Source: Candidatus Micrarchaeota archaeon (GTDB lineage Archaea > Micrarchaeota > Micrarchaeia > Anstonellales > Bilamarchaeaceae). Taken from it: a stretch of DNA of 64,000 bases. Positions 17,343 to 54,800 of this stretch are shown here, piece by piece. Positions within the stretch are counted from its first letter, which is position 1. Each line of letters starts with the position of its first letter. The notes beneath the pieces were generated by a model. That model ran no database searches. It had not been told where the DNA came from and saw nothing but the letters and a program-made list of their open reading frames with translations. The stretch is from positions 36,044 through 100,043 of the forward strand of contig JBBSVN010000012.1 in the NCBI GenBank assembly GCA_038046765.1, in the 5' to 3' direction. A program made the position numbers and the translations under genes.

Positions 17343-17436
17343 ATGCTTAGAACAACCTAAAGCCTTAAAAAAGAAAGTAAAATTATTATTGGGGGTTTGA
17401 TAAAGAATATAAATACTAACGCTCGAAAGAATTAAT

Positions 17437-17886
17437 ATGTCAAACAACAGCGTAACATTGCATAGAGTCCTTAAGGCAACACCTGAAAAGGTTTATCGCG
17501 CCTTTACCGATCCTAATGCGCTTGCTTCTTGGATACCTCCCTACGGGTTTGTGTGTATTATCCATAGTATGGAAGTAAAACCAGGCGGAGCTTACAAATC
17601 ATCATTCATCAATTTTTCTACTGGAAAAAAACATTCTTTTGGCGGAAAATATCTTGAAATTAAACCAAATGAATTCTTAAAATACACTGATAAATTTGAT
17701 GACCTTAACTTGCCTGGAGAAATGATTACTTCGGTTTGGCTTAAGAAAGTTTCAACTGGAACAGAACTTAAAATAATCCAAGAAGGTATTCCAGCAGTTA
17801 TACCAACTGAAATGTGCTATTTAGGGTGGCAGGAGTCATTAGAAAAATTAAAAAAGTTAGTTGAACCAGAGATTTCAGATTCCTAA
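17437..17886 (+). CDS. SRPBCC / AHSA1 (Aha1-like) domain protein.
   Basis: LHRVLKATPEKVYRAFTDPNALASW is the typical AHSA1/SRPBCC N-terminus. Confidence 0.6.
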   Translation: MSNNSVTLHRVLKATPEKVYRAFTDPNALASWIPPYGFVCIIHSMEVKPGGAYKSSFINFSTGKKHSFGGKYLEIKPNEFLKYTDKFDDLNLPGEMITSVWLKKVSTGTELKIIQEGIPAVIPTEMCYLGWQESLEKLKKLVEPEISDS

Positions 17887-33020: not shown

Positions 33021-34379
33021 TTAAATCAGCCTTATTTCTTTATTTTCCTTATCAAGTTGCATTAAACTAACTGTTGCACCATTTTTAGTTGCTTTTTTTA
33101 TTGCAGGGTTTTGACACAGAACTTGCTTTAAGAAATTTAAAACTTCTGGATCAGAATGTACAATCACAATATGTCCCGTACTTTTAACACAATTAACAGA
33201 AGCAAGTGCATATTCAATGCTTCCAAGTGCTTCTTCGCTTAATTCTGCGTTTTTCAAACTAACCGCGAATAACTCGTTTAAATCTGCACCAAAGAACGTG
33301 CGGCCATTTGTTACATTGCCTAAATCTTTTGGATCGCTTAAAATTATCGCGTGAGCATACTGTTCTGCAAAAGTTTTTCCTGCAATTTTAGCGTGCATGA
33401 TCGCGATTCGCACTTCGGATGTGGTTTCTGAAACAAAATCAGATAATTCTCTTGTTTTAGAATAAGTAAGTCCTAAATCAGTTGTATTAAATCCGATTAC
33501 TCCCGCATATACTTTTATTTTTCTTTCTCTTACAATATCTAAATTAGCTAATACTTCTCTTTGATATTCTGTGTTATTGATAAATATGTTGGGGTGACCA
33601 GAGCCTTTTATGTGGATTCGATCTAATAACCTATCAATGCTTTGGCTTTTTCCGCGGTGTTTATGTTCGTCTTTTTTAACTAAGCATGCTCCGCAACCAA
33701 TGTGGCCAATAACAAAAATTTCGCCATTTTCCTTAAGTTTGTCTATTACTGCACGTACTTCATCAGTTACTGCATTTCCCGCAATCTGTACAGTTGCTAT
33801 GTGTTTACCCTCATAATGCCTAAGAGACGTAGCCTCACACCTGGAATCAGAACACATTAATACAACTGCGTCATACTCTTTAGGTGTTTTTACTAAAGTA
33901 CGTTCAAGTGCTCCTTTAGCTCCTGCAATTAAAATTTCTCTTGACGCTTTGATGTCAAGGAGTCCTTGTTTTGCTATTATTCTTTTTAAGTCATCTATAT
34001 AAAACGGATTTTTTCTGCTTTCTCTTACTGAATCTGGAATAAGTAATCTTTCACTTCGAGTAAAACTTCTTGGTCGTGCTACTTCTTTATCTGTTTTTCT
34101 TGGGTCTTCTCTATGCTCTACTCCTCTTAATTTTTGTAACGAAAGAATAATATTTTCTGCATCTTTTAATCTTTTTTTAGCCGTTTTGTCCTTTTTGTTT
34201 TGAATCAGTTTTTCCTTAATCTTTTCTATATTGGCAACATTGAATTTCCGATCTCCAAGAATTAGCGTAGCTTCAGGAAAATTCTGCTTATTTAAGTCTA
34301 AGCAAAAATCAATTAATTCCTGGTGAAGCATAGGATCGGTAATCTGAATATTTTTTAACTTCAAGTCCGGACACTTCAA
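33021..34379 (-). CDS. Beta-class carbonic anhydrase-like protein: an N-terminal ~130 aa extension, a catalytically intact beta-CA domain, and a degenerate second beta-CA-like domain.
   Basis: CSDSRC (Cys plus the Asp/Arg dyad), QIAGNAV, and VIGHIGCGA (His and Cys) give all three Zn ligands. The C-terminal half repeats the fold without ligands. Confidence 0.65.
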   Translation of the reverse strand: MKCPDLKLKNIQITDPMLHQELIDFCLDLNKQNFPEATLILGDRKFNVANIEKIKEKLIQNKKDKTAKKRLKDAENIILSLQKLRGVEHREDPRKTDKEVARPRSFTRSERLLIPDSVRESRKNPFYIDDLKRIIAKQGLLDIKASREILIAGAKGALERTLVKTPKEYDAVVLMCSDSRCEATSLRHYEGKHIATVQIAGNAVTDEVRAVIDKLKENGEIFVIGHIGCGACLVKKDEHKHRGKSQSIDRLLDRIHIKGSGHPNIFINNTEYQREVLANLDIVRERKIKVYAGVIGFNTTDLGLTYSKTRELSDFVSETTSEVRIAIMHAKIAGKTFAEQYAHAIILSDPKDLGNVTNGRTFFGADLNELFAVSLKNAELSEEALGSIEYALASVNCVKSTGHIVIVHSDPEVLNFLKQVLCQNPAIKKATKNGATVSLMQLDKENKEIRLI

Positions 34380-34428
34380 TACATCGCCTAATTCTATGTC
34401 TTTTTTTATGTTTTAAAAACTTATAAAA

Positions 34429-35448
34429 CTATGCTAGAATAAAAGTTTGGCCATTCATCTTGTTGAACTTCATCAGGGTAATTAGTTTTCCATTTTGGCT
34501 CTTTTCTTTTATTATTTTACTTTCAAGAATCTGTTTTTTTAATTCCTTAACTGTATCACTATCTGTATGAAGTATCATTATATGTGGTGAGTCCTTAACT
34601 CCATGAACCTTTAATAGTGCATCTTCTATTGCTGCAATTGATACTGTAGCTATTTTCTTACCAAAGTTACTCACGCATATAATTTCGTTTAAATTTCCGT
34701 CAAAGATTATTCTGGGGTTGTTTACTAAACCTAGGTCTAGTGGGTCGCTTAAAATAATTGTATGTGCATATGCTGCATTCAAATTTACTCCCTGGTTTTT
34801 AGCCTTTGTTAATCTGCTGCTTAAACTTCTTTTTAATCCGTTTATACTGTTGCTTGGTTTACCATCTTTTAGAAATCGTATTGGTTCAAGACTATTTGTA
34901 AAATCTGCAAGTACTGGTATTATTGCTGCTTTTTTAGATATTAAAATTTCGTTGTGTTTTAATTTTTCTACCTGGTTTATTGCATTTGCAGAGTATATAT
35001 CTTTTGCAAAACTATCCTTTTTACCAATTTCCACGTGACTAATTAAATTATCTATGCTGTTACTAATTCCTCGGTTATTGCTTTCCTGTGCTTTTAAATC
35101 ACATTCATAGCACATTAGCGATCCGCAGACAATTACTTCTCCATCTTGTTTTATTCTGATAAATCCGTTATCCAAATCATCTGTTACTATCTGCCCTGCA
35201 GTTTGTATGTTTAAAATTTTTTGTTCTAGGTAATCTGTTAGAATTGTTGGATCAGTGCGTGGTCCAGTTGATGAAACTAAAACTAAATCATATTCCGCCG
35301 GTTTAGCCAAGTTCGCTTTCTTTTGGGTTATTTGCCTTACAAATGCTGCGTTTCCTGCAATTAACAAATCAAGCGATTCTTTTACTAAAATTGGTTGCTG
35401 CGTTTGTACTTTCTTCATTACGACATCGAGTAATACCATCGAACGCAC
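34429..35448 (-). CDS. Beta-CA-like paralogue (duplicated domain) with a degenerate active site.
   Basis: Co-linear with the neighbouring gene (LIAGNAAF, QTAGQIVTD), but CxDSR is replaced by VSSTGPR and HxxCG by GSLMCYEC. The C-terminal half (AHTIILSDPLDLG...) is homologous to that of the neighbour. Confidence 0.55.
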   Translation of the reverse strand: MRSMVLLDVVMKKVQTQQPILVKESLDLLIAGNAAFVRQITQKKANLAKPAEYDLVLVSSTGPRTDPTILTDYLEQKILNIQTAGQIVTDDLDNGFIRIKQDGEVIVCGSLMCYECDLKAQESNNRGISNSIDNLISHVEIGKKDSFAKDIYSANAINQVEKLKHNEILISKKAAIIPVLADFTNSLEPIRFLKDGKPSNSINGLKRSLSSRLTKAKNQGVNLNAAYAHTIILSDPLDLGLVNNPRIIFDGNLNEIICVSNFGKKIATVSIAAIEDALLKVHGVKDSPHIMILHTDSDTVKELKKQILESKIIKEKSQNGKLITLMKFNKMNGQTFILA

Positions 35449-35540
35449 CTCTGGTGGATAATTAGTACTTTATAGTAATAGCTTATGCTAGTAAAGAATT
35501 AAAAAAAGGAAAGATTAAATTATTTGAAAAATATTTAAAA

Positions 35541-36083
35541 TTATTTTCTCATTTTCTTGGATTTTTCCTCTAAGATCATTCCCGCTTTAAGAAGTCCTGC
35601 CAGAAGTTGATACGGGTTAGGTGGGTTTCCAGGTACATTTACATCAACTGGTACAGTATCTTCAACTTTTCCGCTTCCAGCTAATGCATAACTACCTTGA
35701 TATGGAAAACCCGTAACTGCACCATCTCCTGCTGCGACAACTACGCGCGGGTCTGCCATCGCATCATAACTTTTCTCAAGTGCAAGTTTCATATTCATTG
35801 TAACTGGACCTGTAACAATAATTACATCTGCATGCCTTGGCGAGGCTACATAGTGGATTCCAAATCTTTCTGCATCTACACGCGGGTTCATCATCATCTG
35901 TTCTTCAAGTTCGACATCGTTTGGCGAACCAGCGTCAACCATTCTAACGTGTATTGACTGCGCAAAAGGGTTAAGACTGCGTTTTTTAAGTAGTTCTGCA
36001 ACCTCTCTAATATCTGGGTCATCTGAATTAGGATCTATACGGTCCGGATATTTTTCAAAAAGGAATTTGAATATTTCAAACAT
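35541..36083 (-). CDS. NuoB / [NiFe]-hydrogenase small-subunit homologue lacking all four [4Fe-4S] N2 cysteine ligands.
   Basis: Aligns with the NuoB core (RFG..ASPRxxDVxIVxG, VPVD..VPGxPP), but CC is replaced by SP, GSCA by GDGA and GCPP by GNPP. The protein has no Cys at all. Confidence 0.75.
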   Translation of the reverse strand: MFEIFKFLFEKYPDRIDPNSDDPDIREVAELLKKRSLNPFAQSIHVRMVDAGSPNDVELEEQMMMNPRVDAERFGIHYVASPRHADVIIVTGPVTMNMKLALEKSYDAMADPRVVVAAGDGAVTGFPYQGSYALAGSGKVEDTVPVDVNVPGNPPNPYQLLAGLLKAGMILEEKSKKMRK

Positions 36084-36092
36084 ATTTACACC

Positions 36093-37649
36093 TCACAAAT
36101 CAGTACCTGCGTAAGACATATTAAAGCTTTTATTTATAAGCGGGAAATCTGGCACAATATTTCCAGGAACTAAATTTTCCGCGCCACGCCAGTTACGAAA
36201 AGATGCTGTCCTGCATCTAAAACTTTTTATTGTTCCATTATCCATTAGTTCAATCATGAATGTACAAGAACCTCTTGGTGCCTCTGCCCATCCTAAGCTC
36301 CATACACTTTTACGCGATTTTGAAACTGGTACTGGTGCAAGAATCTCGCCATTAGGCATCTTGGCAATTACTGTCTTTATGATTTCAACTGCTTGTTTTA
36401 CTTCTGCAATTTTTACTAGGAACCTGCATAATACGTCTCCTCCCTCTTCCTTCTGTTCGCTAAACTTGACCTTATCATAAAATTCGTAAGGGAAGTATTT
36501 TCTTACATCGCAGCTATATCCTGCTGCACGAGCGACAGGTCCAACTAAAGATAATTTTTGCGCAACCTCTGTTGTAACTATTCCTGTTGAATAAACCCGA
36601 TCAAGATATGTTGAGTTTGTCAATGTAACTGTTTCAAGTGTGTTTAATCTATTGACAAAGTTGTCAAGTTCGCTAACTAAAACACTAATTTTAGTCTCAT
36701 CTAAGTCTGCTTTTACCCCTCCTGGTGTACAAACTCCCCCTAAGAACCTATGGCCAGTTATTTTATTATTAAGGCGCATCATATCCTCGCGCAAAACGGC
36801 GAATCTAGATGCTGCGAAATAAAATCCGACATCTGTTGGCATTCCGCCTAAATCCGATAAATGACTGTATATTCTTTCAAGTTCAGCTAAGATCACTCTT
36901 ATTGCCTGCGCTCGTTCTGGAACTTTTATATCTAGCGCTTTTTCTACCGCTGTACAATAGCCGATCATATTCGCAATTCGTTCATCTCCTGAAATCGATT
37001 CTATAAGTGGTATTGCTTCGGTTATATTTTTTCCTTCAACTAGTTTCTCAACCCCCCGATGAAGGTAGAACATTCTTGTTTCAAGTTTGTTTATTGATTC
37101 CCCGACCACGCTGAATCTAAAATGTCCTGGTTCGATTATACCTGCGTGAACTGGGCCAACTGGAATCTGGAATTCACCTTCGGCACCCGTCATCGGCATT
37201 TCGTAAACGTAATCTGCATTTTTACCCAATCTTTTCTTCTGACCTTCTATATTTTCTAATCCGCCATCAGGATGGAAAAGTATTGGACGTGAATCTGGAA
37301 TGTTATCAAATCTAAGTCCGCTTAAATCCTGCATTTTCCTCTCATCCCATACTGCTGCGTTAACAACTGCAGAAACTGCATAAAATTCCTTGCCTTCTGC
37401 ATATAATACTGCGAATGTTTCAAGAGCTGGCACACGAAAAACATATGATGCCTGAAAGTTTCCTTTTTCTAAATCACTTATAAATGAGCTATCGAATAAT
37501 GCATTCTCTTTAATCATTTTTTCACTTAAACCTGGCAAATCTTTGGAATTACATTTTATCCAGACTATTCCTGATTGTTCAACAGAAGAAATTTTTGCAT
37601 TAGCAGATGACTCAAGCTGTTTTAAGAATTTTTCTAATTTAGAATCCAT
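36093..37649 (-). CDS. NuoC-NuoD fusion / group-4 hydrogenase large-subunit homologue without NiFe-binding cysteines.
   Basis: GPVHAGIIEPGHFRF...LHRGVEKL is a NuoD/EchE-like core. The N-terminal CxxC position reads ANMIGYC, and the C-terminus ends NMSYAGTDL with no DPCxxC. Confidence 0.75.
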   Translation of the reverse strand: MDSKLEKFLKQLESSANAKISSVEQSGIVWIKCNSKDLPGLSEKMIKENALFDSSFISDLEKGNFQASYVFRVPALETFAVLYAEGKEFYAVSAVVNAAVWDERKMQDLSGLRFDNIPDSRPILFHPDGGLENIEGQKKRLGKNADYVYEMPMTGAEGEFQIPVGPVHAGIIEPGHFRFSVVGESINKLETRMFYLHRGVEKLVEGKNITEAIPLIESISGDERIANMIGYCTAVEKALDIKVPERAQAIRVILAELERIYSHLSDLGGMPTDVGFYFAASRFAVLREDMMRLNNKITGHRFLGGVCTPGGVKADLDETKISVLVSELDNFVNRLNTLETVTLTNSTYLDRVYSTGIVTTEVAQKLSLVGPVARAAGYSCDVRKYFPYEFYDKVKFSEQKEEGGDVLCRFLVKIAEVKQAVEIIKTVIAKMPNGEILAPVPVSKSRKSVWSLGWAEAPRGSCTFMIELMDNGTIKSFRCRTASFRNWRGAENLVPGNIVPDFPLINKSFNMSYAGTDL

Positions 37650-37651
37650 AT

Positions 37652-39124
37652 TTAAACACCCCCGATTAAACTACCTGCATCTTTTATTAAATTAAGAACT
37701 GGTGCTGGAGGGAACAATGCTAATGCTATTGCAAGAAGCAAAAGCGCAATCACTGAAAATGACATGTAAGGACTTACTTCTATATGTTTTGGCATTTTTT
37801 CCGGCTTATTACCAAAGACCATATCTGAAGCTTTGTAGAGGAAACTTGCAAATGCAATTACTGTAAATACGATTACAAAAAGAGCAACTAGGTATTGTCC
37901 CTTTGATAATGCGCCTCCTAGAAGTGCAATTTCAGAAAAGAACGTACCAAATGGGATACTTCCAGCCACTCCTAAAACAGCTAGTAAAAATAAAAGTCCA
38001 AAAACAGGTACTGCGCTTGCAGCTCCCTTTATATCTGGCATATTTTTAGTGCCATATGCATTTGTTATAATTCCACCTAAAAGAAATGCTAATGGTTTAG
38101 CTAAAGAATGAGCAAGCATATGGAATAATGCTGCAAAAATTGCTATTGGTCCACCAATTCCAGTAGCTAGTACAATAATTCCCATATTCTCTACGCTTGA
38201 ATATGCTAAAAGTCGCTTAAGGTTATCTTGTGCAAAAAGACGAAGCGCGCCTACAACTAGGGAAAGCACGCCAAATAGTATAAATAATCCTGACGCAAAA
38301 CCTGCAATTTCTGGTGACAAGATTACAATTCCATATACTCTTAATATTCCATAAAGGGCTATATTTAATATAAGTCCGGATAGTAAAGCACTAACTGGAG
38401 TTGGTGCCTGACTGTGCGCATCTGGAAGCCACACATGCAACGGTACAAGACCAACCTTTGTCCCGTATCCAACTAAAACGAATACGAATGCAAGTTTAAG
38501 GTATAGTGGGTTTATTTTGGTAATATCAAACGGTGTTCCGTAAACTGGGGTTTCTAAACCTCCCTGTGCAAATGCATAAAATAAAACAAGAATTCCAATA
38601 AATGCCAGTGTAAATCCAACAGAATTTATTGTAAAGTATTTCCATGCTGCTTCTATTGAAGCTTTGGTGTTGTAAAAACTTATCAAAAACACTGATGAGA
38701 GTGTTGTAAGTTCAACTGCTGCCCAAACGTGAATTGGGTTTGATGCTAAAAGTCCAGTTAGCATTGCAGCTAAAAACAGGGAAAGCTGTGCATAAAATCT
38801 TGCGAGCCTGTCTTCTTTAATTATTCCTTCTTCTACTTCATGGCGCATATATCCTACAGAGTAAATAAATACCAGTAGTGAAACAACTGATGTAATTCCT
38901 ATTAAAAATGCTGATAATGCATCCATTCTAAGTAGTTCTGAGAAATCTGAAATCGGTGCCCCGCTACTTATGAAAATTGATATTGAAAATAGTGCTGCAC
39001 CAACTGCTCCAAGAGCGCCTAAACATGCAACTAATTCTGCAAGTCGCGGGTGTTTACCTAAAAATACAGCAATTATTCCTGCAATTACCGGGAAAAGAAT
39101 AATTAATTCAAGCATAAATATCAC
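37652..39124 (-). CDS. NuoM/NuoN/HyfD/MrpD-like antiporter-type membrane subunit.
   Basis: About 14 TM helices with conserved PF00361-type motifs (WLPEAH-like HVWLPDAH). Confidence 0.75.
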   Translation of the reverse strand: MIFMLELIILFPVIAGIIAVFLGKHPRLAELVACLGALGAVGAALFSISIFISSGAPISDFSELLRMDALSAFLIGITSVVSLLVFIYSVGYMRHEVEEGIIKEDRLARFYAQLSLFLAAMLTGLLASNPIHVWAAVELTTLSSVFLISFYNTKASIEAAWKYFTINSVGFTLAFIGILVLFYAFAQGGLETPVYGTPFDITKINPLYLKLAFVFVLVGYGTKVGLVPLHVWLPDAHSQAPTPVSALLSGLILNIALYGILRVYGIVILSPEIAGFASGLFILFGVLSLVVGALRLFAQDNLKRLLAYSSVENMGIIVLATGIGGPIAIFAALFHMLAHSLAKPLAFLLGGIITNAYGTKNMPDIKGAASAVPVFGLLFLLAVLGVAGSIPFGTFFSEIALLGGALSKGQYLVALFVIVFTVIAFASFLYKASDMVFGNKPEKMPKHIEVSPYMSFSVIALLLLAIALALFPPAPVLNLIKDAGSLIGGV

Positions 39125-40797
39125 CTTTTTTCATTAAGTTCAGCAAGTTCTCCAGTGTCAACGGTTTTCGCAATACTCTGGATTTTAAGCGCTAAAACTA
39201 CTGATACAACTACCAATACCAATATATCAAAAAGCGTAATTGCTTCGGATATAAGCGGGATGTCCACACCAAGCGCAACTGGTAAAAGTACAATTCCGTT
39301 TTCCATTATCAAAAATCCTAACATCTGTAAAAGAATGTGCGTTTTTGTTGAAATAATTAAAAGACCTATTAAAATTATTGAAAGTGCAATTGGTAAAACT
39401 ATTCCTGCAGTCAGGCTTGAACCCACTAAAAATGATACGGAAATAAGTAACACTGAAATTACTAATGCTGTCGTAGTTGTAACTGGCGCATCGATAAATA
39501 ATGGGTCGATATCGATTAAGCTTCTTAATTTCACATTCGTGTGCTTTAGTACATCGGTTATTCCCTCTGGTGTGAGGTTCGTTTTATCAAGTAAATTCTC
39601 TCCTTTTGCCATCTGGTTAAAAATTCGATATATCAAAAGCGGTAAAATTATTACCTTTAAAATTACTGTAATGCCTAGTCTTAAATAGCTGTCAACTGAA
39701 CCTGTTTTAACTGCTATAAGTGCAAAAATTATTCCAAGTGCAACGTTTTGCAATAAATATATCTCTATTCTTCTTTTGAACGTCGCTCCAAAAAGGAAAT
39801 ATAAATTGCTTATTAGCATTACGCAAAGTAATATTGGGACTGTACCGTTTGCGTTTGGGTCTGGATTAATATGTATTAAAAATGCGAATACTGCCAAATT
39901 CAAGGCAAAGACAAGAAGCTCGGCAACTTTAAATAATCTGACCTTGACGCTAAATGATTCAACTATTGCTGTAATTACTCCCAAAACTAGTACTGTTGCT
40001 AAAATTGCGGCTGTTCGGGATATCGGGTCGCTAAATAATGCAAGCGGAAAAAATAAATTTGCAAAAAGCGTGAAAAATAAAAACATTTTTGAAGCTTGCG
40101 CCCATTCTATAAGTCCAAGGCTTGGGCCAGAATTTTCAAGAATCATTGCCTCGTGGACCATTGTTAGTTCTAGGTGTGTAGCTGGGTTATCAAAAGGAAG
40201 TCTGCCCATTTCAGCTAGCATCAATATAAATAATGCGGCAGCTGCTAAATAAAATGTTGGCGAACTAAGAATTCCGAACCAGTTGTTTGGTCCATTTGCA
40301 GTGAATATCATTAAGTTGGTACTTCCTGAAAATAATACTAAAAATAAAATTGCTGCAAAAAGGACTGGTTCAATTAAAACAGAATATAATGATTCCCTGC
40401 TTGAGCCTAATCCTCCAAATGCGCTAGCTGCATCCAGGCCAGATAAGATTACTACAAATCTGCCTATTGCAAAAAGATAAACGAATATTATTATGTCTGC
40501 TACAAATGGCGGAACTGCGGTAAATATTGGTAAAAGTAATGTTGCAGCTACTGTTGAAACAAAAATAAAAATCGGTGTCGCTAAAAAGATCCATGAACTA
40601 ATATCGCTTCTAACTGTTCCTTTACTAAATAATTTTACAAGGTCGAAATATGGTTGTATTATTGAAGATCCGCTCCTACCCTGACAATATGCTTTGACTT
40701 TTCTTATGACTCCAACTAGGAGCGGTGAAAGCGCAAAAACAAATAAAATCTGTACAATCATTCCTAAAACTGAAGATATCATTGTCATAAATATCAC
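39121..40797 (-). CDS. NuoH/HyfC-like membrane subunit fused to an additional C-terminal TM domain (HyfE/NuoK-like).
   Basis: RKVKAYCQGRSGSSIIQPYFDLVKLFSKG matches the NuoH RxxAxxQxRxGP...QPxADxxKL motif. The 558 aa length is about HyfC plus HyfE. Confidence 0.7.
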   Translation of the reverse strand: MIFMTMISSVLGMIVQILFVFALSPLLVGVIRKVKAYCQGRSGSSIIQPYFDLVKLFSKGTVRSDISSWIFLATPIFIFVSTVAATLLLPIFTAVPPFVADIIIFVYLFAIGRFVVILSGLDAASAFGGLGSSRESLYSVLIEPVLFAAILFLVLFSGSTNLMIFTANGPNNWFGILSSPTFYLAAAALFILMLAEMGRLPFDNPATHLELTMVHEAMILENSGPSLGLIEWAQASKMFLFFTLFANLFFPLALFSDPISRTAAILATVLVLGVITAIVESFSVKVRLFKVAELLVFALNLAVFAFLIHINPDPNANGTVPILLCVMLISNLYFLFGATFKRRIEIYLLQNVALGIIFALIAVKTGSVDSYLRLGITVILKVIILPLLIYRIFNQMAKGENLLDKTNLTPEGITDVLKHTNVKLRSLIDIDPLFIDAPVTTTTALVISVLLISVSFLVGSSLTAGIVLPIALSIILIGLLIISTKTHILLQMLGFLIMENGIVLLPVALGVDIPLISEAITLFDILVLVVVSVVLALKIQSIAKTVDTGELAELNEKR

Positions 40798-42773
40798 ACC
40801 ATAACTGCGTAAATAAGAATTGCAACCATGACAAATAGCATGTACATCAAGTAATGTAATAATTTTCCTGTCTGGAATATTGAAGACCTGGACGAAATTG
40901 CTCTAAATCCATTTTCTATTGGCTTATAAATAACTGCCTCGAAAAATGCAGGCCCATACGCATTCTTTTCTGTATTAAGCGGATTAAGCCATCTGTTTAA
41001 TGCCCTTTGAATTGGCATTGAAATTCCTATTGGGGTATATTCCATTTTTGATTCTACTTTATGTATTCCGCAATCCCATGTAACCCTAGTAACATCATTT
41101 GCTTTTGTAAATGCTCGAATAATCCAGAGGAATGCAAAAACTGCAATTGTCGCCCCTAATAAAACCAATACGATTCCAAATGAAGGAAGGGTAAATACAA
41201 CTTTTGATGTTGCGCTCATATCGCTAATATTTAACTTTGCAAACATCGGGCTAATTATCGAAAATATTATTGTTGGGAAAACTCCCGCTATAATACACGC
41301 AATTACTAGTATGATCATTCCTATGTGCATTAACGAACCTACTTCTTTAGCGTGTTCAACATGTTCGCTTCTAGGTAATCCTAAAAATACCATTCCAAAT
41401 GCCTTAACAAAAGCTGCTAATGCCAGTGCACTTGTAAATGCGAGGACTAAAACAACTGCACCAAATAAGAATGCAATTAATTTAGGAAGTGCTAATCCTG
41501 ACAAAAGTGCCTGGAACATAGTCCATTCGCTTGCAAAACCATTTAATGGTGGCAAAGCAGAAATTGCTGCTACGCCGACAAAGAACAAAATTGCAACTAC
41601 TGGTAGTTTCTTTATCAACCCACCCATTGCGTTCATGTCTTTAGTGTGTGTTGCGTAAGCAACTGCTCCTGCTCCTGTAAATAAAAGACTTTTGAAAAGC
41701 GCGTGATTTAATGAATGGTAAAGTGCTGCAAATAATGCTAATGCTGCTAATGCGTCCATGTTTAAACTATGAAATAATACTGCAGCTCCAATTCCTAAGA
41801 AGATAATTCCTATGTTTTCTACACTTGAATAAGCGAGAAGTCGTTTTAAATCTTTTTGAATTATCGCATATAATACTCCGAATACGCAGGACACTGCTGC
41901 TAATAATAATAATAAAATTCCCCACCAGAAATGGAATGGAGTTGCACCTAAAAAGTCAAATAATACCCGAATTATTCCGTAAATTGCTACTTTTAACATT
42001 ACTGCGCTCATTAAAGCGGATATATTACTTGGTGCCTGGGGGTGTGCTTCTGGTAACCATGTATGAAATGGCATTAAACCAGCTTTTGATGTAAACGCGA
42101 TTACTGCCAACACAAAAATGATACTTGCTAACATGGGTGTTAAACTAATTGTTCTAAATCCGGCAAAGTCCATGTTTCCTGAAAATCCAGTGAAAACCAG
42201 GAACATTAAAATTAATGCAACTGCACCGATATGCGTTATTAGTAAGTATATAAAACCAGCATCTTTTGTTTTTGCTTCCTTGCTTTCATATGTTACAAGG
42301 AAAAATGAGCTAAGTGCCATTAGTTCCCAAAAAATTAAAAAAAGAAGACCGTTTTGAGAAGTTACAACTGCAATCATAGACAAAATAAAAATATTATAAA
42401 GAAAACCAAATAACGCGTTACTATATCCTTTTTCCTGGTACTCTTTCATGTAATCTATTGAATATATCGAAACTGCTAGTCCAACTAAAGAAATTAATAA
42501 TATGAAAAATCCAGAAAGCGCGTCAATACTAAAAGTTAAATTTCCAATCGGGGCAAAATTTCCCAAGTTTAATGGTGCAATATTTGTGCCCATCATTACC
42601 ATAAGCCCAGCTATTACTCCAATAATGCAACCTAAGATTGCAAATAAAAATGAAAGTTGCCTGCATAAATTTTTCCATTTGGATAAAACAAGCGACACTA
42701 AAGAACCAAATAAAAATAAAACAAAAAGGCCTAATAAACTCTGAGCGGTAAAAAGTTCAATCAAATTAACCAT
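40794..42773 (-). CDS. NuoL/HyfB/MrpA-like antiporter-type large membrane subunit.
   Basis: 659 aa polytopic protein with HTWLPEAHPQAP, a PF00361 core. It is the first gene of the operon. Confidence 0.75.
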   Translation of the reverse strand: MVNLIELFTAQSLLGLFVLFLFGSLVSLVLSKWKNLCRQLSFLFAILGCIIGVIAGLMVMMGTNIAPLNLGNFAPIGNLTFSIDALSGFFILLISLVGLAVSIYSIDYMKEYQEKGYSNALFGFLYNIFILSMIAVVTSQNGLLFLIFWELMALSSFFLVTYESKEAKTKDAGFIYLLITHIGAVALILMFLVFTGFSGNMDFAGFRTISLTPMLASIIFVLAVIAFTSKAGLMPFHTWLPEAHPQAPSNISALMSAVMLKVAIYGIIRVLFDFLGATPFHFWWGILLLLLAAVSCVFGVLYAIIQKDLKRLLAYSSVENIGIIFLGIGAAVLFHSLNMDALAALALFAALYHSLNHALFKSLLFTGAGAVAYATHTKDMNAMGGLIKKLPVVAILFFVGVAAISALPPLNGFASEWTMFQALLSGLALPKLIAFLFGAVVLVLAFTSALALAAFVKAFGMVFLGLPRSEHVEHAKEVGSLMHIGMIILVIACIIAGVFPTIIFSIISPMFAKLNISDMSATSKVVFTLPSFGIVLVLLGATIAVFAFLWIIRAFTKANDVTRVTWDCGIHKVESKMEYTPIGISMPIQRALNRWLNPLNTEKNAYGPAFFEAVIYKPIENGFRAISSRSSIFQTGKLLHYLMYMLFVMVAILIYAVMV

Positions 42774-43141
42774 ATTCTAACCTACAGTTGGATTTTTTTG
42801 AATAATACCTAATACTTAGAAAGGTAAGTTTTTAAATTAAACACTTGGGCGTTTCGAGCTAAAAATTAGATTTTTTATATCTCGTTTATTCTAAAATCAA
42901 TCAAAATCAAGATACGGTATCCAAACTAAATATATTTGGAACTGCTTATAAATACTTCGCTGATAAATCGCCACTAACTACAATTAAAAAGACAATGCAT
43001 CAAAGTTTTATAAAATCGATAAACGAATTGAAAATAAAAATTAAAATTTGTGTATCATCAATTTAACATAGGTTTATAAACACTTTTAGACAGAAATTAT
43101 CATATATCTTTCAAACAAGTAAAATAAAACAAGGCAAGAAA

Positions 43142-44377
43142 ATGTCTGTAGATTTAAGAAGAATTAGTCACAAACTTAAATTAAGCGAAATGGATATAAG
43201 TGCAATCCCAAGTCTGCGTAGATCTACTACCCCGTTATCTATTCCTCAGTCTGCTTTTGAAATATTTCGTGGCTTTAGCCTATTTAATGAAAGGATTAGG
43301 CCAACTAAACTTCTAGGTGTACGTTTTGAACGAGTTGCTGGTCAGGCCTTTGACAAAAAGGATTTGCATTCCAGGGAAGCTATAAGAAGAAATTTATTAA
43401 GCATAAAACAAAAAGGTGCATTTTTAATTTTAGGTCATGGTGGGGAAATTGGTTGTGGTGCAATTAAGGGAAAGCAAAATCCAAATCCATCCCAACCTCA
43501 ATTAGTAAAAGATTTAGTTGAGCATATATCCGAAAGAGTCATAGGATTAGATGATTTGCAGTATGCTGCTTCTATAGAAAATGCTTTATTTCAAGGCATA
43601 AAAATTTTACACGATCCTGAATTTGCAGCAATAATTAAAGAAAAAGATATTACTGTTGTTTATGCTGTTTGCAATGGTGATGCCAACTATTCCTATAATG
43701 CCTTAAATAAAGGGCTTAATGAAAATGCACTTCTATTTAAGCACCCAAAGTTACAGCAATTAAGAGAACAGTTCCAGCATGGGTTAGCTAAAGTTTCAGA
43801 ATTTGGCATAGATCTTAAGAAACAGTATGCTTATGCTGCATTTGGTTATGATCCAGCTGAACTTGCATCTGTAATAGATAAATATAGCACTGAAATCGAA
43901 CTAGGGGGGGTATGCTGTGTTGATTCAAGACTTCCACCACATACTGGTGTTTACTATTTACTTCGAATTGAACCAAATGAAGCCTTTTCAGGAACATTTC
44001 ATCATTCAATTAGGCCTGATGGTGTTTATCAACCAATAATTTCTAAATTAGCGGCTGGGAGTATAGAATTTGGTCTTCAAAATGTTTGTGGAATAAATAG
44101 TCTAAATCCCGATAATCCTGGAAATGGGCATTTAGTTATGCTTGCAACTAGTCTAGCTAATGCAAGAAAAATGAAAGAAACTGTACTTCAATTCTCTGGT
44201 ACTGCTCGCGCAACAAAAGATGGAAAAACAATTTCACTACTTAGTTTTGATGGAAAAGAGTTAGTAATGCAAAATGATTCTCTTGGTTTTGATTTGGTTG
44301 CATCTTATGATTCTCCCGCTCAAATACTTACGCGACCTCCATCTGAATTTGCAGAACTTATGGATCAACGAGCCTAG
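43142..44377 (+). CDS. Hypothetical protein with weak beta-CA-like features, divergently transcribed from the complex-I-like operon.
   Basis: RFERVAGQAF (RNAGN-like) and LILGHGGEIGCGAIKG (GH..CGA with a 3-aa insertion). The first Cys ligand is absent. Confidence 0.35.
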   Translation: MSVDLRRISHKLKLSEMDISAIPSLRRSTTPLSIPQSAFEIFRGFSLFNERIRPTKLLGVRFERVAGQAFDKKDLHSREAIRRNLLSIKQKGAFLILGHGGEIGCGAIKGKQNPNPSQPQLVKDLVEHISERVIGLDDLQYAASIENALFQGIKILHDPEFAAIIKEKDITVVYAVCNGDANYSYNALNKGLNENALLFKHPKLQQLREQFQHGLAKVSEFGIDLKKQYAYAAFGYDPAELASVIDKYSTEIELGGVCCVDSRLPPHTGVYYLLRIEPNEAFSGTFHHSIRPDGVYQPIISKLAAGSIEFGLQNVCGINSLNPDNPGNGHLVMLATSLANARKMKETVLQFSGTARATKDGKTISLLSFDGKELVMQNDSLGFDLVASYDSPAQILTRPPSEFAELMDQRA

Positions 44378-44386
44378 AATAAGTAA

Positions 44387-45583
44387 TTATAATCCAAAAT
44401 TCTTCTTCATAATCTGCGAAACGATTTTTGGTTCTAAGCCTAATCTGATTAAAGTCGTATGTCCTCTTTGACCTTTTGTACTAGGTGTTGTCATAATTAA
44501 ACCTAAGGTTTCTAAATCTTTTAAGTATTCATGATACCATCTAACGCTTCTAGCTCTCTTCTTTAATTTCTTACAAATTAGTTCGTATTCTTCGTAAACT
44601 TCGCCAGACATTAAGAAGTTTTCTTCTCCAACATCAAGCCTAGAATACTTTGTACCATTTAAAATTAAATCTGAAATTGCCAGTAAAAGCATCTGGTGGT
44701 TTTCTGGTAAAGTTGCAAGTGTTTCCTGTGCAATATCTAATTCTACCTTTCGTCTTGCTGATTCAACTTCCTCATCAGTTACTTTTGTTTTATTATTTTG
44801 TTCAGCAGATTCTCCTGCTTTAAGGAGTATTTTTAACGCATATCTAGCATCCCCGCTTTCTTGCGCTGTTATTGCTGCTGCCAGATTTATTGCAGATTGC
44901 TGTACTACATTATCCTTAAATGCTTTTTCAGCGCGCTGTGCTAAAATCTTTTTTAATTGCTCGCTAGTATAAGGAGGAAAAACTATTTCAGTTTCGTTTA
45001 AACTGCTTTTACTTCTTTGGTCTAAACCCTGCTTAAACGTAAGTTTGTTTGAAATTCCGATTAGCGATACGCCTCCTTTACGAAGTTCGTCATTTACCCT
45101 AGTTAATGTGTAAACCATGTCGTCAAGATCTTTTATTATATCAATTTCATCAAGTACAACTATCATTACGATTCCTTTATCGCAAATCTCAATAAGTTTC
45201 TCGTATAAAAAGGTTAATCCAAATCCTGCTTTTTCAAGTTCTGGTACAAACTGCTTTAGGATTTTTTGCATTACCCTATATCTTGAATTATATATTCTGC
45301 AATTGACATAACTAATATACGCGTTATTTCTTGAAGAGCCAAATTTTTCCATCACATGTTTTACTGTTGCTGTTTTTCCGCAACCTGTTTTGCCGTATAT
45401 AAAAATGTTTTTTGATCTTTGGCCTTTAATCGCGGGACTAACTAGGGACATTATTTCCTTTATTTCTTTTCCACGAAACGGCAGTGCTTTTGGTACGAAG
45501 TGTGGTGAAAGTATCGATGCATCCTTAAATACTTTACTCTCTGTTAAAAATTCGTCAAAGGAGTCTTCGGTCATATTTTTCAC
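44387..45583 (-). CDS. cdc6: Orc1/Cdc6 replication initiator (AAA+ domain plus winged helix).
   Basis: Walker A GKTGCGKT, Walker B VVLDEIDII, sensor motifs and a C-terminal wH. Confidence 0.85.
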   Translation of the reverse strand: MKNMTEDSFDEFLTESKVFKDASILSPHFVPKALPFRGKEIKEIMSLVSPAIKGQRSKNIFIYGKTGCGKTATVKHVMEKFGSSRNNAYISYVNCRIYNSRYRVMQKILKQFVPELEKAGFGLTFLYEKLIEICDKGIVMIVVLDEIDIIKDLDDMVYTLTRVNDELRKGGVSLIGISNKLTFKQGLDQRSKSSLNETEIVFPPYTSEQLKKILAQRAEKAFKDNVVQQSAINLAAAITAQESGDARYALKILLKAGESAEQNNKTKVTDEEVESARRKVELDIAQETLATLPENHQMLLLAISDLILNGTKYSRLDVGEENFLMSGEVYEEYELICKKLKKRARSVRWYHEYLKDLETLGLIMTTPSTKGQRGHTTLIRLGLEPKIVSQIMKKNFGL

Positions 45584-51862: not shown

Positions 51863-54800
51863 TTAAACAAAATCCGCAAGTCCAAGTTGTCTGCTTTTTT
51901 CATCTTCGAAAATACTTCGTATTTCCTTTTTAACTAGAAGTAGTCTTTGCTTTAAATAATCCGGTAATTCGTAATCTGCAATAATCTTTTCTGAAATTTC
52001 TAAGTATTTTTCAATTCCTCCCTTATTTATTGTTAAAATAAGATTTCCTCCACAGAAATTGCATTTGCCCGATAACGGGACGCGTCTTAAACTTTCATTA
52101 CAACTAGTGCATCTAAATGTTTGCCTTGAAAATGATCTTAAATTACCATATAAATCTGGTATAAAATGGCTAAGGATTAATCTTTCAGCAGCATTCTTCG
52201 CATCTACTGCCCTTATTTTTCCCTGTAATTTAAATTGCGTGGTTATCTTATCAGCCATATTATCAAATGTTACATAAGCCGTTCGTAAATTTCCTTTATC
52301 TATATATCCGCCCGTATGCGTAAGCTGAATTTCAAATTGCTCGGGGGTTCCAAGTAAGTCCTTTACTGTTTTTAATTTTACTTCTGTTGGAGGTGTATAC
52401 TTTAGTGTTGCCTCATAAAATTCTTTTGGATAAGAATTCACTACTTCAATACAGTGCGCTTCATCATCAACTTCTTTTGGGTCTAACTGAGGTGTTAAAA
52501 CTAATGGCGCGTCCATTGTCCCCCCTCTTCGCTCAGTTAAATAATGCCTTGAAAAATTAATCAGGGTGTCCATAAGAAGCATGACTGAGTCTTCATCACC
52601 ATCACATTGATAAGTAGTTATTCCAGAACAAATAAGACTGTGGTACTTTTCTACCGTTACATTGTAAACAAATTTATCTTGGTTTTTGATCGTTTTTCTC
52701 TCAATAACCTGATCAATAAAAGTGTCTCCTAAATATTCTGTCCTAGATCCTTTTCTTTTTGTTTCCCACTTCTCCAAAAGTTTTTGCGCTTTTTCTTGCT
52801 TTAAACCAGAAAATCCTATGTTATCAATAAATTTTTTAGCTTCACTAGAATAAATTCTTATCTTATATGAATGAATATATTTGGGTCTGCCATAAAACTT
52901 TATAATCAGAGAACTTTTTACGTATCTATCTTCTTCATAAATCGAATGCTTAATTCCAAAGAAATTTAGCAAAATGGAAACTCCATCTATCAGTTCCTTA
53001 TTTATAGAAGTTACATTCACCTCCAGGGTATTGCCTAAAGAACAAGAACCATCTCCCGTGAAGTAACCTTTTAGCAGTGCAATCACTTTTTTATTTGGCA
53101 AAGAATAGACAAAATCAGGTATTTTTTTAGTTTTTGCATTTCTACCTATTTTTAACTTTTCAAAGAGTTCGTAAATATATCTTGAACAAATTGTTATATG
53201 TGTTTTATTTACATGAGGTTTAATTCCAAAAACTTTCTCAATTTTTTCTTTTATTATATCTACTGCCCATTCTTTGGTAGCTGTCAAAGAAACCTGATAA
53301 CAATCTATCTGCTTATTTTTAGTAAACCCCTCCGCTAAATAAAATCCGATTAAATAGAAGAAATCCTCATCAAGCTTTATTGTTGGCTTTAACAGAACCT
53401 TATCCCTCTTACTACCTAATATATATTTTTTACTCGCCAGTATGTCTGCTCTAAATTCTTTTACCAATTCCAACGGATAAGATTTTCTATATATATAATT
53501 AGTGAAAGTTTTGTAATTTAATCCAAAACTTCTACTTATTTGAGATAATTCTCCCTCTTCATTGAATAATTTCTCATCTGTTCTTATCATTGCATCTGTA
53601 ATATTCAAACTAGAAATAAGTTCCATGTCTTCCCTATCTATAATTTCCCTTTGCAAATTCCAAGGAATTATTAGTTCTTCAACTTCATTCGCGCTTACTT
53701 TTTCTCCTTTTGAATTCGGAAATTTATGGTCTGGCGTTACCGTTATTCTTCTGCCAGATTTTGTTTTTAACTTTACTAAATTTTCTGGTGCAATATGTTT
53801 TGAAACATGCGTAATATTACATAATTCAAATTTTTTCATTTTCTTGTTCCAAGCATATGTCTTTACTCCTTCTACTAGTTTATATTGAGTCCCAAAATCA
53901 TCTATTTCTGTTTTTCCGACTAAATTACTTTCTACAAAATCCATTATTTTCGTAAGTTCTAGTGATCCGTTTCGCTCGACCAAAATTTTTTCTTTTCCAT
54001 CAAAACAATTTCTCCTTCGCGCTGATATCAAATAAGGATGAGCATAAGATAAATTTGCCTTTGTAAAACCTACAATTCTGCAAAGAACTGCCGCGCTAGT
54101 GTGTGGCGAAAGACAAGCAGTTAGTTGTCCTATTAAGTCCTGTTTTGTTAATGCATTATAAAACGGCGCAAGCCCGTAAACGTTTACTAATAAATCATCG
54201 ATAAATTTTGCAGCCTGTAAGAAATATTCTCCATTCGCTTCTGGTATTACAATGTCCTGTATTTTAAGTGAAACAAGTTGGTTTTCGTTAGTTAATTCAT
54301 TTCCATAATAATCTTTCAAATAGCCTAAACTTCTTAGTTTTGCAATACTAACCTGTGCTTCACTTGGTTTAAAATGAGTTAAAGGGACGTTACTGGCATC
54401 AAAGCGCATTGTTCCATCACGAAATACATAAACCCCATATTTCGCCCTTAAAAATCCTTTTTCTAAAAGTTCGGGCGTACGCTCTAAATTAGATAACCCC
54501 TTTATTCCCTTTACATCCTCAACGCTTATGTCTAGTTTTTTCTTTATTGAATCATAAAGTTCGATCATATCTATGGGTTTTTTTTCAAAGCATACTGTTT
54601 CCTTATCACAGTGTATTTTCATGTTAACTGGGTTGCCGCATACAACGCATTTTTTTTCAATAATTGTTTCGCCCTTACAAATTTCGCATGTAGATAAAAA
54701 TGTAAGTTTTTTACAACTCGTACATCTTCTGTTTACAAGTTCAAGGTTAACTGTTCGTTCATCCCTACCACGAAGAGTTTTGTATATTTTTGTTATGCTT

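Follow-up and report, generated by a model that had tools for sequence, protein, structure and literature searches.

Gene content and redox centers of the membrane module

The window, a stretch of 64,000 nucleotides, comes from a genome of the Micrarchaeota (DPANN), a tiny symbiotic archaeon. On its minus strand we found a run of five close-set genes (positions 35541 to 42773), which the open reading frame (ORF) list, Pfam, and NCBIfam together identify as HyfB/NuoL-, NuoH+HyfE-, HyfF/NuoM-, NuoC-D-, and NuoB-like. Successive genes of these five are separated by −4 to +9 nt. A preliminary description of the locus had given ORF coordinates that match the ORFs we found, and its subunit identities are upheld by Pfam and NCBIfam, with an order like that of hyfB-C(E)-F-G-I. 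It had also counted seven tightly packed genes. This is true of the five Ehr genes but not of the two minus-strand carbonic anhydrase (CA)-like genes, which are offset by 92 and 49 nt.

EhrL (40794 to 42773, minus strand; 659 amino acids [aa]) is a HyfB/NuoL-type antiporter-like subunit with about 16 hydrophobic segments and matches to PF00361 (E 8.8e-56) and PF00662. Its best NCBIfam match is hydrogenase-4 subunit B (642.7 bits), and its nearest solved chains are HycC (7z0s_C; E 2.4e-77) and MbhH (6cfw_H), with MrpA and MrpD also among the closest. The EhrH(+E) gene (39121 to 40797, minus strand; 558 aa) overlaps each neighbor by 4 nt and encodes a NuoH/HyfC-like subunit (PF00146, E 8.4e-38, residues 15 to 308) with a fused HyfE-like C-terminal part; residues 439 to 555 match the NCBIfam hydrogenase-4 membrane subunit (HyfE; E 2e-11). 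EhrM (37652 to 39124, minus strand; 490 aa) is the second antiporter-like subunit, of the HyfF/NuoM type (PF00361, E 2.7e-50; best NCBIfam match HyfF, 368.8 bits). We found that EhrL residues E150, K230, K261, H353/H357/K361, and E416 are kept in 12 Micrarchaeota orthologues and that EhrM residues E138, K223, H335/H339/K343, and E398 are likewise conserved across the clade (12 orthologues). By our own motif-based reading of the helices, these charged residues would occupy TM5/TM7/TM8/TM12-type antiporter positions.

The two peripheral subunits have lost their metal ligands. EhrCD (36093 to 37649, minus strand; 518 aa; PF00329 and PF00346) is a fusion of NuoC- and NuoD/HycE-like parts. In an alignment with Escherichia coli HycE (7z0s_E), its four NiFe cysteines are replaced by S220, E223, S512, and G515, as expected of an Ehr large subunit. 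The ligand positions read SESG or AEAG in all Micrarchaeota EhrCD orthologues, acidic and His residues of the former active site are still conserved, and mean column identity within the clade is 56%. EhrB (35541 to 36083, minus strand; 180 aa; PF01058, E 1.7e-20) is NuoB/HycG-like and contains no cysteine. Alignment with MbhJ and HycG placed P54, V57, a G/V position, and N152 where the Fe-S cysteines would be, and its Micrarchaeota orthologues retain at most one true Fe-S ligand. We found no NuoI/HyfA/HyfH-like (ferredoxin) gene within the cluster. The preliminary description had held that all NiFe and Fe-S ligands are gone and that ferredoxin-like subunits are absent, and our results agree on both points. 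Given substitutions at all four NiFe cysteines and a cysteine-free NuoB-like protein, we classified the module as Ehr type and devoid of redox centers. Judging from the sequences, the loss is clade-wide, yet the proteins are under strong constraint.

We compared the module with known complexes. It has the gene set that defines Ehr, with a group-4 large subunit (PF00346/PF00329), a small subunit (PF01058), a NuoH-like subunit (PF00146), and two antiporter-like PF00361 proteins in five contiguous genes. Described Ehr complexes, including Mbx/MBS-type and a proposed FDH-Ehr, similarly combine group-4-like large and small subunits lacking NiFe ligands with NuoH-like and Mrp/antiporter-like subunits (PMC6349859). 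Among the 78 nearest loci outside the Micrarchaeota, 65 are of the Ehr type as well. Most relatives retain the first two Fe-S cysteines of the small subunit, and a stricter motif scan found them together with a PGCPP motif in 47 loci. The described complexes are assumed to be redox coupled and no CA partner has been described for them, whereas in the Micrarchaeota clade the cluster is gone and CA-like genes flank the module.

The gene order resembles that of E. coli hydrogenase-4/formate hydrogenlyase (hyfABCDEFGHI; FHL 7z0s) in its B-C(E)-F-G-I-like part, and the best NCBIfam and PDB matches are all Hyf/Hyc. The module is not a hydrogenase, because it has no NiFe site, Fe-S cluster, HyfA/HyfH ferredoxin, or FdhF partner. 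Accordingly, the L1 (RxCGxC), L2 (DPCxxC), and small-subunit [4Fe-4S] motifs of group 4 [NiFe] hydrogenases (Hyf/Hyc/Mbh/Ech) are all missing. Respiratory complex I (Nuo/Nqo) was rejected as well: the N2 ligands have disappeared, the cluster has just five genes, none of them NuoI-like, and only a HyfE-like segment replaces NuoA/J/K. Mrp antiporters share with the module MrpA/MrpD-type subunits and freedom from redox chemistry. However, Mrp consists of an MrpA-G set with no NuoB, NuoCD, or NuoH homologues, whereas the cluster here joins its MrpA/D-like PF00361 subunits to NuoB/CD/H-like ones and has no separate MrpB/C/E/F/G-like genes.

CA-like proteins beside the module

CA452 (33021 to 34379, minus strand; 452 aa) matches PF00484 with 32.4 bits, above the gathering score of 25.7. 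It carries CSDSR at 176 and HIGCG at 226, so that the Zn/dyad set (C176, D178, R180, H226, and C229) is complete, and its predicted fold is that of a beta-CA. A charged helical N-terminal extension (residues 1 to 130) is followed by a catalytic N-domain and a C-domain without ligands; the C-domain has Gln/His where the canonical QxP glutamine sits. Sequence, motifs, and predicted fold together identify CA452 as a true homologue of beta-CAs that retains the whole Zn site and is built as a fused pseudo-dimer; the reversible CO2 hydration typical of the class would be its putative activity.

CA339 (34429 to 35448, minus strand; 339 aa) is a two-domain paralogue that is 31% identical to CA452 across 326 aa (E 3e-46). 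Its ligand columns read S-G-R / S..C, the sole such case in 66 family members, and it is probably noncatalytic. CA411 (43142 to 44377, plus strand; 411 aa), encoded by the divergent gene, belongs to subfamily A2 (E 2e-9 versus CA452). Its N-domain retains H97...C104-G and lacks CxDxR, and a conserved CVDSR (259 to 263) lies inside a C-domain insertion. This pattern is common to 19 of the 66 family representatives, whereas 45 of the 66 family A members retain the complete catalytic set. CA339 and CA411 have no Pfam match and are tied to beta-CAs solely through CA452 and the family profile. The preliminary description had called both minus-strand proteins genuine beta-CAs and the divergent one weakly CA-like. 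The first designation fits CA452 (PF00484, motifs, and predicted fold) but not CA339, since its Zn ligands are lost; CA411 is indeed a CA452 homologue, with a rearranged motif.

The best sequence and structure matches of the CA-like proteins are true CAs throughout. Identity to the two-domain beta-CA of Porphyridium purpureum (1ddz) and to carboxysomal CsoSCA (8thm and 2fgy) is 9 to 15%. Unlike these, CA452 has the additional 130-residue extension, and subfamily A2 has its CxDxR shifted to the second domain. We found no transmembrane segment in the three CA-like proteins (maximum Kyte-Doolittle 19-residue score, 0.89 to 1.45).

We read the spacers from the sequence. The 92-nt spacer between EhrB and CA339 (35449 to 35540) contains, by eye, a T-tract and a TATA-like box and could possibly combine a terminator with a separate promoter. 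The spacer between CA339 and CA452 is 49 nt, and T-tracts and TATA-like boxes are visible by eye in the CA-gene spacers. The AT-rich intergenic region of 368 nt between EhrL and CA411 (42774 to 43141) likely serves as the promoter region of both divergent genes. No translational coupling links the CA-like genes to the module: spacers set them apart, and many are encoded on the other strand. In other genomes, they are often convergent or divergent to the module or have purE in between. With spacers of 49 to 92 nt and CA genes that often lie on the other strand, the earlier proposal that module and beta-CAs form one operon is not supported.

Conservation of the neighborhood

Of 13 informative Micrarchaeota loci, 12 have 1 to 3 CA-like genes within about 5 kb of the module; the exception is one module (L005) without a CA-like neighbor. 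The preliminary description had let its proposal depend on homologous Ehr operons carrying CA genes. The Micrarchaeota loci bear this out, and no CA-like gene was found beside the related modules of other phyla (0/78 loci), including those in which the first two Fe-S cysteines are likewise missing (0/11). The corresponding Fisher P values of 4e-14 and 1e-5 are indicative only, as the loci are mutually related.

The CA-like neighbors fall into three diverged, lineage-specific families: A, B (L004, L008, L093, L096, and L097), and C (L006, L094, and L095). Family B is tied to beta-CAs by its CxDxR motif and weak profile matches only. The adjacency survives turnover of the other flanks (cdc6; eRF1/Lon; LemA/M48/HSP20), and in family B and C loci the CA-like gene abuts EhrB down to 44 to 46% EhrCD identity. 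In the window and in L001, the CA/cdc6 arrangement occurs with the module; in L091, L092, and L098, the family A pair lies at cdc6 with no Ehr module within 5 to 10 kb. Cofactor-less Ehr modules without nearby CA genes occur in Methanosarcina, Dehalococcoidia, CPR bacteria, and others, and those of Methanosarcina and some other lineages are nearly identical to the module here. The module must therefore have a function of its own, and since each partner also occurs without the other, the link is lineage specific and not obligatory.

A possible gradient-coupled carbonic anhydrase system

Vectorial CAs that are coupled to the PMF and sit on NuoL-like subunits have precedents in DAB2 (PMC13144422), DAB1 (bioRxiv), and NDH-1MS (PMC6981117). 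We tentatively favor a DAB/Cup-like ion-gradient-coupled CA system at this locus, while rating it somewhat short of an even chance. Given the gene neighborhood, the Micrarchaeota module and its CAs may constitute a new ion-gradient-driven CO2/bicarbonate converter, and we found no publication describing such a system. The module would combine a pair of antiporter-like ion channels with a NuoH/HyfE junction and a NuoB/NuoCD stub devoid of cofactors. As no redox chemistry is possible, its only energy exchange would be with an H+ or Na+ gradient across the membrane. Its partners in Micrarchaeota would be lineage-specific, cytoplasmic, two-domain beta-CA-like proteins, in the window CA452 with a canonical Zn site, CA339 in a presumably structural or regulatory role, and CA411 with a rewired site. 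By analogy with DAB and NDH-1MS/Cup, the passage of ions through the antiporter-like subunits would most likely be linked, by proton removal and/or conformational gating, to the hydration of CO2 at the zinc of the beta-CA. Such coupling would make the reaction directional and hold CO2 as cytoplasmic bicarbonate, which a small heterotrophic symbiont might use for carboxylations and pH control.

The locus differs from both models. DAB (DabA/DabB, DabABC) uses a single NuoL-like subunit, whereas the present Hyf-type module has five genes, two of them for antiporter-like subunits and the others for NuoH/HyfE and the NuoB/NuoCD stub; the CA-like genes show no translational coupling to those for the membrane subunits, and the context is archaeal and nonautotrophic. 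DAB itself was rejected: we found no PF10070 (DUF2309, DabA family) match at E ≤ 0.01 in the three CA-like proteins, and its single DabB partner and the transmembrane helix that DabA contributes to the proton path (PMC13144422) have no equivalent in a five-subunit module whose partners lack a hydrophobic segment. That the CA-like proteins are without such a helix, whereas DabA2 supplies one (PMC13144422), counts against the coupling proposal. NDH-1MS/MS' (NdhD3/F3-CupA-CupS; NdhD4/F4-CupB) is likewise a complex-I-type machine whose antiporter-like subunits bear a CO2-hydrating module (PMC6981117). However, it draws its energy from ferredoxin-plastoquinone redox chemistry, its Fe-S clusters are retained, and CupA is not a beta-CA, whereas the module here is redox-dead and its partners are beta-CA derivatives. 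With no Cup-family Pfam match and no redox centers, we rejected CupA/CupB (ChpY/ChpX) as well. A further point against the proposal is that no signs of autotrophy were seen within the window, which makes the need for a CO2-concentrating device questionable.

The link could also be functional and not physical, a reading that we consider possible if rather doubtful. The module would then act as an Mrp-like cation/proton antiporter that needs no redox chemistry, or as a gradient sensor, and the CAs would be free, coregulated enzymes of the cytoplasm that serve the same pH and ion homeostasis by buffering or supplying H+/HCO3−. The occurrence of the module alone in other lineages implies that it works without CAs, and the kinship of EhrL with MrpA and MrpD, the separate spacers and orientations of the CA-like genes, and the lack of transmembrane segments in their products fit this picture. 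So do the complete Zn site of CA452 and the Gln/His at its C-domain QxP position, which suit an ordinary reversible CA. However, it leaves unexplained why all the partners are highly diverged, lineage-specific two-domain forms, some of them ligand-less or rewired, and why adjacency persists in 12 of 13 loci despite neighborhood turnover; the conserved NuoB/NuoCD stub, moreover, has no role in known Mrp antiporters. We think it unlikely that the adjacency is inherited synteny without function, with the CA-like genes as part of a conserved cdc6-proximal block that the module simply adjoins in some lineages. The CA/cdc6 arrangement is indeed kept both with and without the module, and the loci are phylogenetically related, so that 12 of 13 does not represent 12 independent events. 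Yet family B and C flanks are wholly different and the CA-like gene still abuts EhrB, and adjacency that outlasts the rearrangement of all else is the usual mark of functional coupling.

Other chemistry, or none, is a shade less probable again: the CA-like proteins might be COS/CS2-type hydrolases, CO2/bicarbonate sensors, or purely structural parts that fill the place on the NuoB/NuoCD stub vacated by the electron-input module. The exclusively true-CA top matches, the full catalytic set in most family A members, and a neighborhood that gives no pointer to sulfur metabolism speak against this. It is quite improbable that the module is still redox driven, through an unrecognized cofactor or an oxidoreductase encoded elsewhere as proposed for other Ehr complexes, with the CA genes irrelevant. 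The general assumption for Ehr complexes in the literature is that ion translocation is coupled to redox chemistry in the cytoplasm (PMC6349859), and the conserved acidic and His residues of EhrCD would be in keeping with this. However, EhrB has no Fe-S cluster for electron transfer, a NuoI/HyfH/HyfA-like ferredoxin subunit is lacking, and an oxidoreductase gene adjoins the module in 0 of 13 loci.

Returning to the gradient-coupled reading, we suggest, more cautiously still, that the Micrarchaeota system could be a third, independent kind of energy-coupled CA. A redox-dead but otherwise complete complex-I/Hyf module would act both as an engine run by the ion gradient and as the docking platform for beta-CAs that are catalytic, ligand-less, or split-site pseudo-dimers, and conversion would be directional. 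If this is true, a nonautotrophic, host-dependent archaeon would carry out directional CO2/bicarbonate conversion, and a function would be assigned to a cofactor-less Ehr complex for the first time.

Gene layout and redox sites of the Ehr module

The region contains eight genes, five encoding Ehr subunits and three encoding β-carbonic anhydrase (CA)-like proteins, which we named by their length in amino acids. The Ehr genes lie on the minus strand and encode EhrL (40794-42773; 659 aa; PF00361/PF00662; top NCBIfam match hydrogenase-4 subunit B, 642.7 bits), EhrH(+E) (39121-40797; 558 aa; PF00146 plus a HyfE-like C terminus at residues 439-555), EhrM (37652-39124; 490 aa; PF00361, HyfF-like), EhrCD (36093-37649; 518 aa; PF00329 plus PF00346, a NuoC-NuoD/HycE fusion), and EhrB (35541-36083; 180 aa; PF01058, NuoB/HycG-like). 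The genes for CA339 (34429-35448) and CA452 (33021-34379) are downstream on the same strand, and the gene for CA411 (43142-44377, plus strand) is upstream and divergent.

The preliminary description placed seven tightly packed genes in one operon. We found that the packing holds for the five Ehr genes, which are spaced by -4 to +9 nt, but not for the CA339 and CA452 genes, which are preceded by 92- and 49-nt spacers. A 368-nt AT-rich region separates the EhrL gene from that of CA411. We judged spacers by eye, the host being archaeal and a sigma-70 scanner unsuitable, and read a T-tract and TATA-like boxes in the window's CA-gene spacers. One operon joining the CA-like genes to the module is not supported, since they lie outside the tightly coupled string and have spacers of this kind.

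We aligned EhrCD to Escherichia coli HycE (7z0s_E) and found that its four NiFe Cys positions are S220, E223, S512, and G515. For EhrB, an alignment with MbhJ (6cfw_J) and HycG (7z0s_G) puts P54, V57, a G/V position, and N152 at the sites of the Fe-S ligands, the fourth being placed solely by this alignment. EhrB has no Cys at all, and the Ehr cluster contains no NuoI/HyfH/HyfA-like ferredoxin gene. The claim that all NiFe and Fe-S ligands are lost and the ferredoxin subunits missing is therefore correct. An alignment-column survey of 12 Micrarchaeota orthologues found SESG or AEAG at the NiFe positions in every case, and these orthologues retain no more than one true Fe-S ligand. Because the NiFe positions are uniformly replaced and EhrCD retains a mean column identity of 56%, we concluded that the module has not decayed.

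The charged residues that antiporter-like subunits should have are kept in EhrL (E150, K230, K261, H353/H357/K361, and E416) and EhrM (E138, K223, H335/H339/K343, and E398). From well-known motifs, read without a structural alignment, we take these to lie in TM5/7/8/11/12. The ion gradient is the only energy source that the module can exchange. Ehr complexes are group-4-hydrogenase-like but lack the NiFe ligands (PMC6349859), and the module is one of them by its make-up and its missing ligands. Direct tests ruled out a true hydrogenase and complex I.

The window is archaeal by gene content, with Orc1/Cdc6, TFE, PolD small subunit DP1 (60213-61718), and PolD large subunit DP2 (51863-56623; 1586 aa), which is split by an intein that carries a LAGLIDADG domain. 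It also encodes two proteins unusual in a reduced DPANN genome: a protein of 723 aa that has a Ser/Thr kinase domain of the eukaryotic type (864-3035) and a 311-aa DUF1801 plus Imm5-like (immunity-protein-like) protein (16512-17447). ARAGORN found no tRNA genes in window positions 1-64000.

The carbonic anhydrase-like proteins

CA452, whose sequence is identical to that of an NCBI entry from a Candidatus Micrarchaeota MAG, matches Pfam Pro_CA at 32.4 bits (threshold, 25.7) and carries the motifs CSDSR (176-180) and HIGCG (226-230). The family profile matched solved β-CAs with E values down to 5.7e-14, in the N-terminal half only. In an AF2 model built from a 49-sequence alignment (a single-sequence model, pLDDT 39, was set aside), CA452 is a fused pseudo-dimer of a catalytic N-domain and a β-CA-fold C-domain without Zn ligands. 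Ahead of both domains is a 130-residue charged helical extension. Of 101 ordinary β-CAs, 98 have the canonical QxP Gln ahead of CxDxR, versus 5 of 46 members of the CA452 subfamily; at the equivalent position, within a QYAHA motif, 65 of 66 members have Gln or His in the dead C-domain. We infer that the one live site of the pseudo-dimer may be served in trans by the other domain.

CA339 is a paralogue of CA452 (31% identity; E, 3e-46). Its ligand columns read S, G, R / S..C, unique among 66 family representatives, and CA339 is therefore probably noncatalytic. Thus, of the two β-CA-like proteins said to lie beside the module, CA452 has intact motifs and CA339 has lost its ligands. CA411 is more distant (E, 2e-9 against CA452) and belongs to subfamily A2, which comprises 19 of the 66 representatives. 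A2 proteins keep H...C-G in the N-domain, where CxDxR is absent, and carry a conserved C[VI]D[AS]R within an insertion in the second domain. This suggests that the Zn site may have been rewired, or split, across two pseudo-domains. All three proteins lack TM segments, and direct tests ruled out membership in the DabA and CupA families.

These three proteins belong to family A (subtypes A1 and A2), one of three lineage-specific CA-like families near Micrarchaeota modules. The family came to light in an exhaustive profile search across 1.84 billion representatives, which gave 213 matches; about 65 to 70 were two-domain proteins of 300 to 460 aa covering the whole profile, and the rest were ordinary 190- to 230-aa β-CAs matching the N-domain only. 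A word-indexed search with CA452 gave just 3 proteins, one with the family alignment was dominated by ordinary β-CAs, and a metagenome scan with a narrower family alignment gave 5 loci. Family C proteins (288 to 300 aa; motifs GCGDRR and GHxDCGA) match β-CAs by hhalign (95% probability; E, 3.4e-8). Family B proteins (380 to 476 aa) have an invariant CxDxR close to the N terminus, and their C-terminal part has weak profile similarity to family A and β-CAs (hhalign, 17 to 33% probability), with no sequence match in PDB or Pfam. We provisionally call family B CA-like on the basis of the invariant motif and these weak matches.

Module neighbourhoods in Micrarchaeota and other phyla

Micrarchaeota EhrCD proteins form a distinct clade (426 to 928 bits), and the next Hyf/Ech/Ehr-type proteins, from other phyla, score below 390 bits. 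An EhrCD-alignment contig scan had 2 Micrarchaeota loci among the matches listed, many of its matches resting on the widespread PVHAGIIE motif. We fetched 13 informative, distinct Micrarchaeota loci and scanned all ORFs with the CA-like family profiles; L009, whose contig ends about 280 bp past EhrB, was left out as uninformative. The association seen in the window recurs at homologous Ehr loci: CA-like genes lie near the module in 12 of the 13. The window has three family-A genes; L001 has two of the A2 type, both on the module's strand and downstream of it; L002/L003 has one, convergent and after purE; and L007 has two plus one family-B gene. Two family-B genes flank the module in L004, L008, L096, and L097, and L093 has one, convergent. 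One convergent family-C gene directly follows EhrB in L006, L094, and L095. L005 has no CA-like gene near the module.

As background, we used 78 loci from other phyla among the matches listed with the same EhrCD profile (13 true hydrogenases and 65 Ehr-type), and none of these listed loci had a CA-like ORF within ±10 kb. Because loci are related to one another, the Fisher P value of 4e-14 for 12/13 versus 0/78 among the matches listed is indicative only. More telling is that the adjacency persists while the other neighbours change completely from lineage to lineage (cdc6, eRF1/Lon, or LemA/M48/HSP20).

In two Micrarchaeota lineages, purE (PF00731; L002/L003:12160-12645 and L007:4277-4732) directly adjoins the module, in L002 between EhrB and the CA-like gene. 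PurE is the AIR carboxylase/mutase of CO2/bicarbonate-dependent purine synthesis. The eRF1 genes upstream of the module in two genomes contain inteins (Intein_splicing, LAGLIDADG_3, and HTH; L007:1450-4191 and L093:1284-4052).

Among the matches listed, the first two Fe-S Cys are missing as well in 11 of the 65 Ehr-type background loci. One of these loci is on the Methanosarcina sp. Mfa9 chromosome (L012:4708-12114), with the order L-H-E-M-CD-B, no CA genes, and aminotransferase, methyltransferase, and FilR1 regulator neighbours. The others are L010, L011, L013, L024, L043, L057, L067, L076, L079, and L087; hosts include Methanosarcina, Dehalococcoidia, Dehalogenimonas, Saccharibacteria, and Daviesbacteria. 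No CA-like gene or obvious partner enzyme lies near these listed NiFe-less modules, which look like a widespread, uncharacterized redox-free complex-I-like module. Since the cofactor-less module occurs without CA genes in Methanosarcina, Dehalococcoidia, Saccharibacteria, and others, it has an activity of its own.

Interpretation and significance

Tentatively and by analogy, we favour a DAB/Cup-like system as the best-supported reading. A CA-like subunit would be attached to the module, and coupling of its β-CA Zn site to the ion flow in EhrL/EhrM would give CO2 hydration a direction. Hydration would supply bicarbonate; dehydration, if that is the direction, would dispose of protons. DAB2 pairs β-CA-like DabA with NuoL-like DabB and depends on PMF (PMC13144422). 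In DAB1, a buried β-CA site is remodelled by protons, and CsoSCA is the nearest fold relative (bioRxiv 10.64898/2026.05.01.722082). In NDH-1MS, CupA is mounted on NdhF3 (PMC6981117). In contrast to these systems, here the module is a complete one of the Hyf type whose peripheral stub is free of metal, the CA-like partners lack TM helices, and the host is archaeal and apparently heterotrophic.

It is somewhat unlikely that free, coregulated CAs serve an Mrp-like antiporter; soluble partners and a module with its own activity would suit this, and so would the same-strand module-CA gaps of 185 to 284 nt in other loci, whereas recurrence beside the module argues for a closer tie. Many CA-like copies are convergent or divergent to the module, and in L091, L092, and L098 an A1/A2 pair or single family-A gene lies by cdc6 with no Ehr gene within 5 to 10 kb, so part of the family-A adjacency may be inherited cdc6-proximal synteny. 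Set against neighbour turnover, synteny without function is nevertheless distinctly unlikely as the whole explanation. Orc1/Cdc6 is a conserved family-A neighbour with or without the module (window 44387-45583, L001:9149-11428, L091:7197-8372, L092:5987-7159, and L098:6895-8076), and the L001 copy has an intein with a LAGLIDADG endonuclease.

We consider a different chemistry or purely structural role for the CA-like proteins improbable. Hidden redox function is very improbable given the ligand replacements. The DAB/Cup-like reading would place the system in a known kind, complex-I-type modules partnered with CO2-hydrating proteins; the present case comes from genomic association only. Full-text searches found no publication that connects carbonic anhydrase with Ehr complexes or with Micrarchaeota, and comparative studies simply list "complex I" for most Micrarchaeota (PMC8407392).

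The role of Ehr complexes is still to be settled, since they resemble hydrogenases or complex I without having the catalytic metals. A clade in which the last Fe-S cluster is gone, yet whose proteins are strongly conserved and whose neighbours regularly include CA-like genes, offers a concrete, testable hypothesis for at least one Ehr complex. If it is true, vectorial (energy-coupled) CAs would not be confined to bacterial CO2-concentrating mechanisms but would reach archaea and heterotrophic symbionts, and the complex-I scaffold would be reusable without any redox chemistry. There would also be new pseudo-dimeric β-CA architectures, including a split Zn-site variant, and the genome annotations behind DPANN metabolic reconstructions (e.g., PMC8407392), in which the module counts as "complex I," would be corrected.
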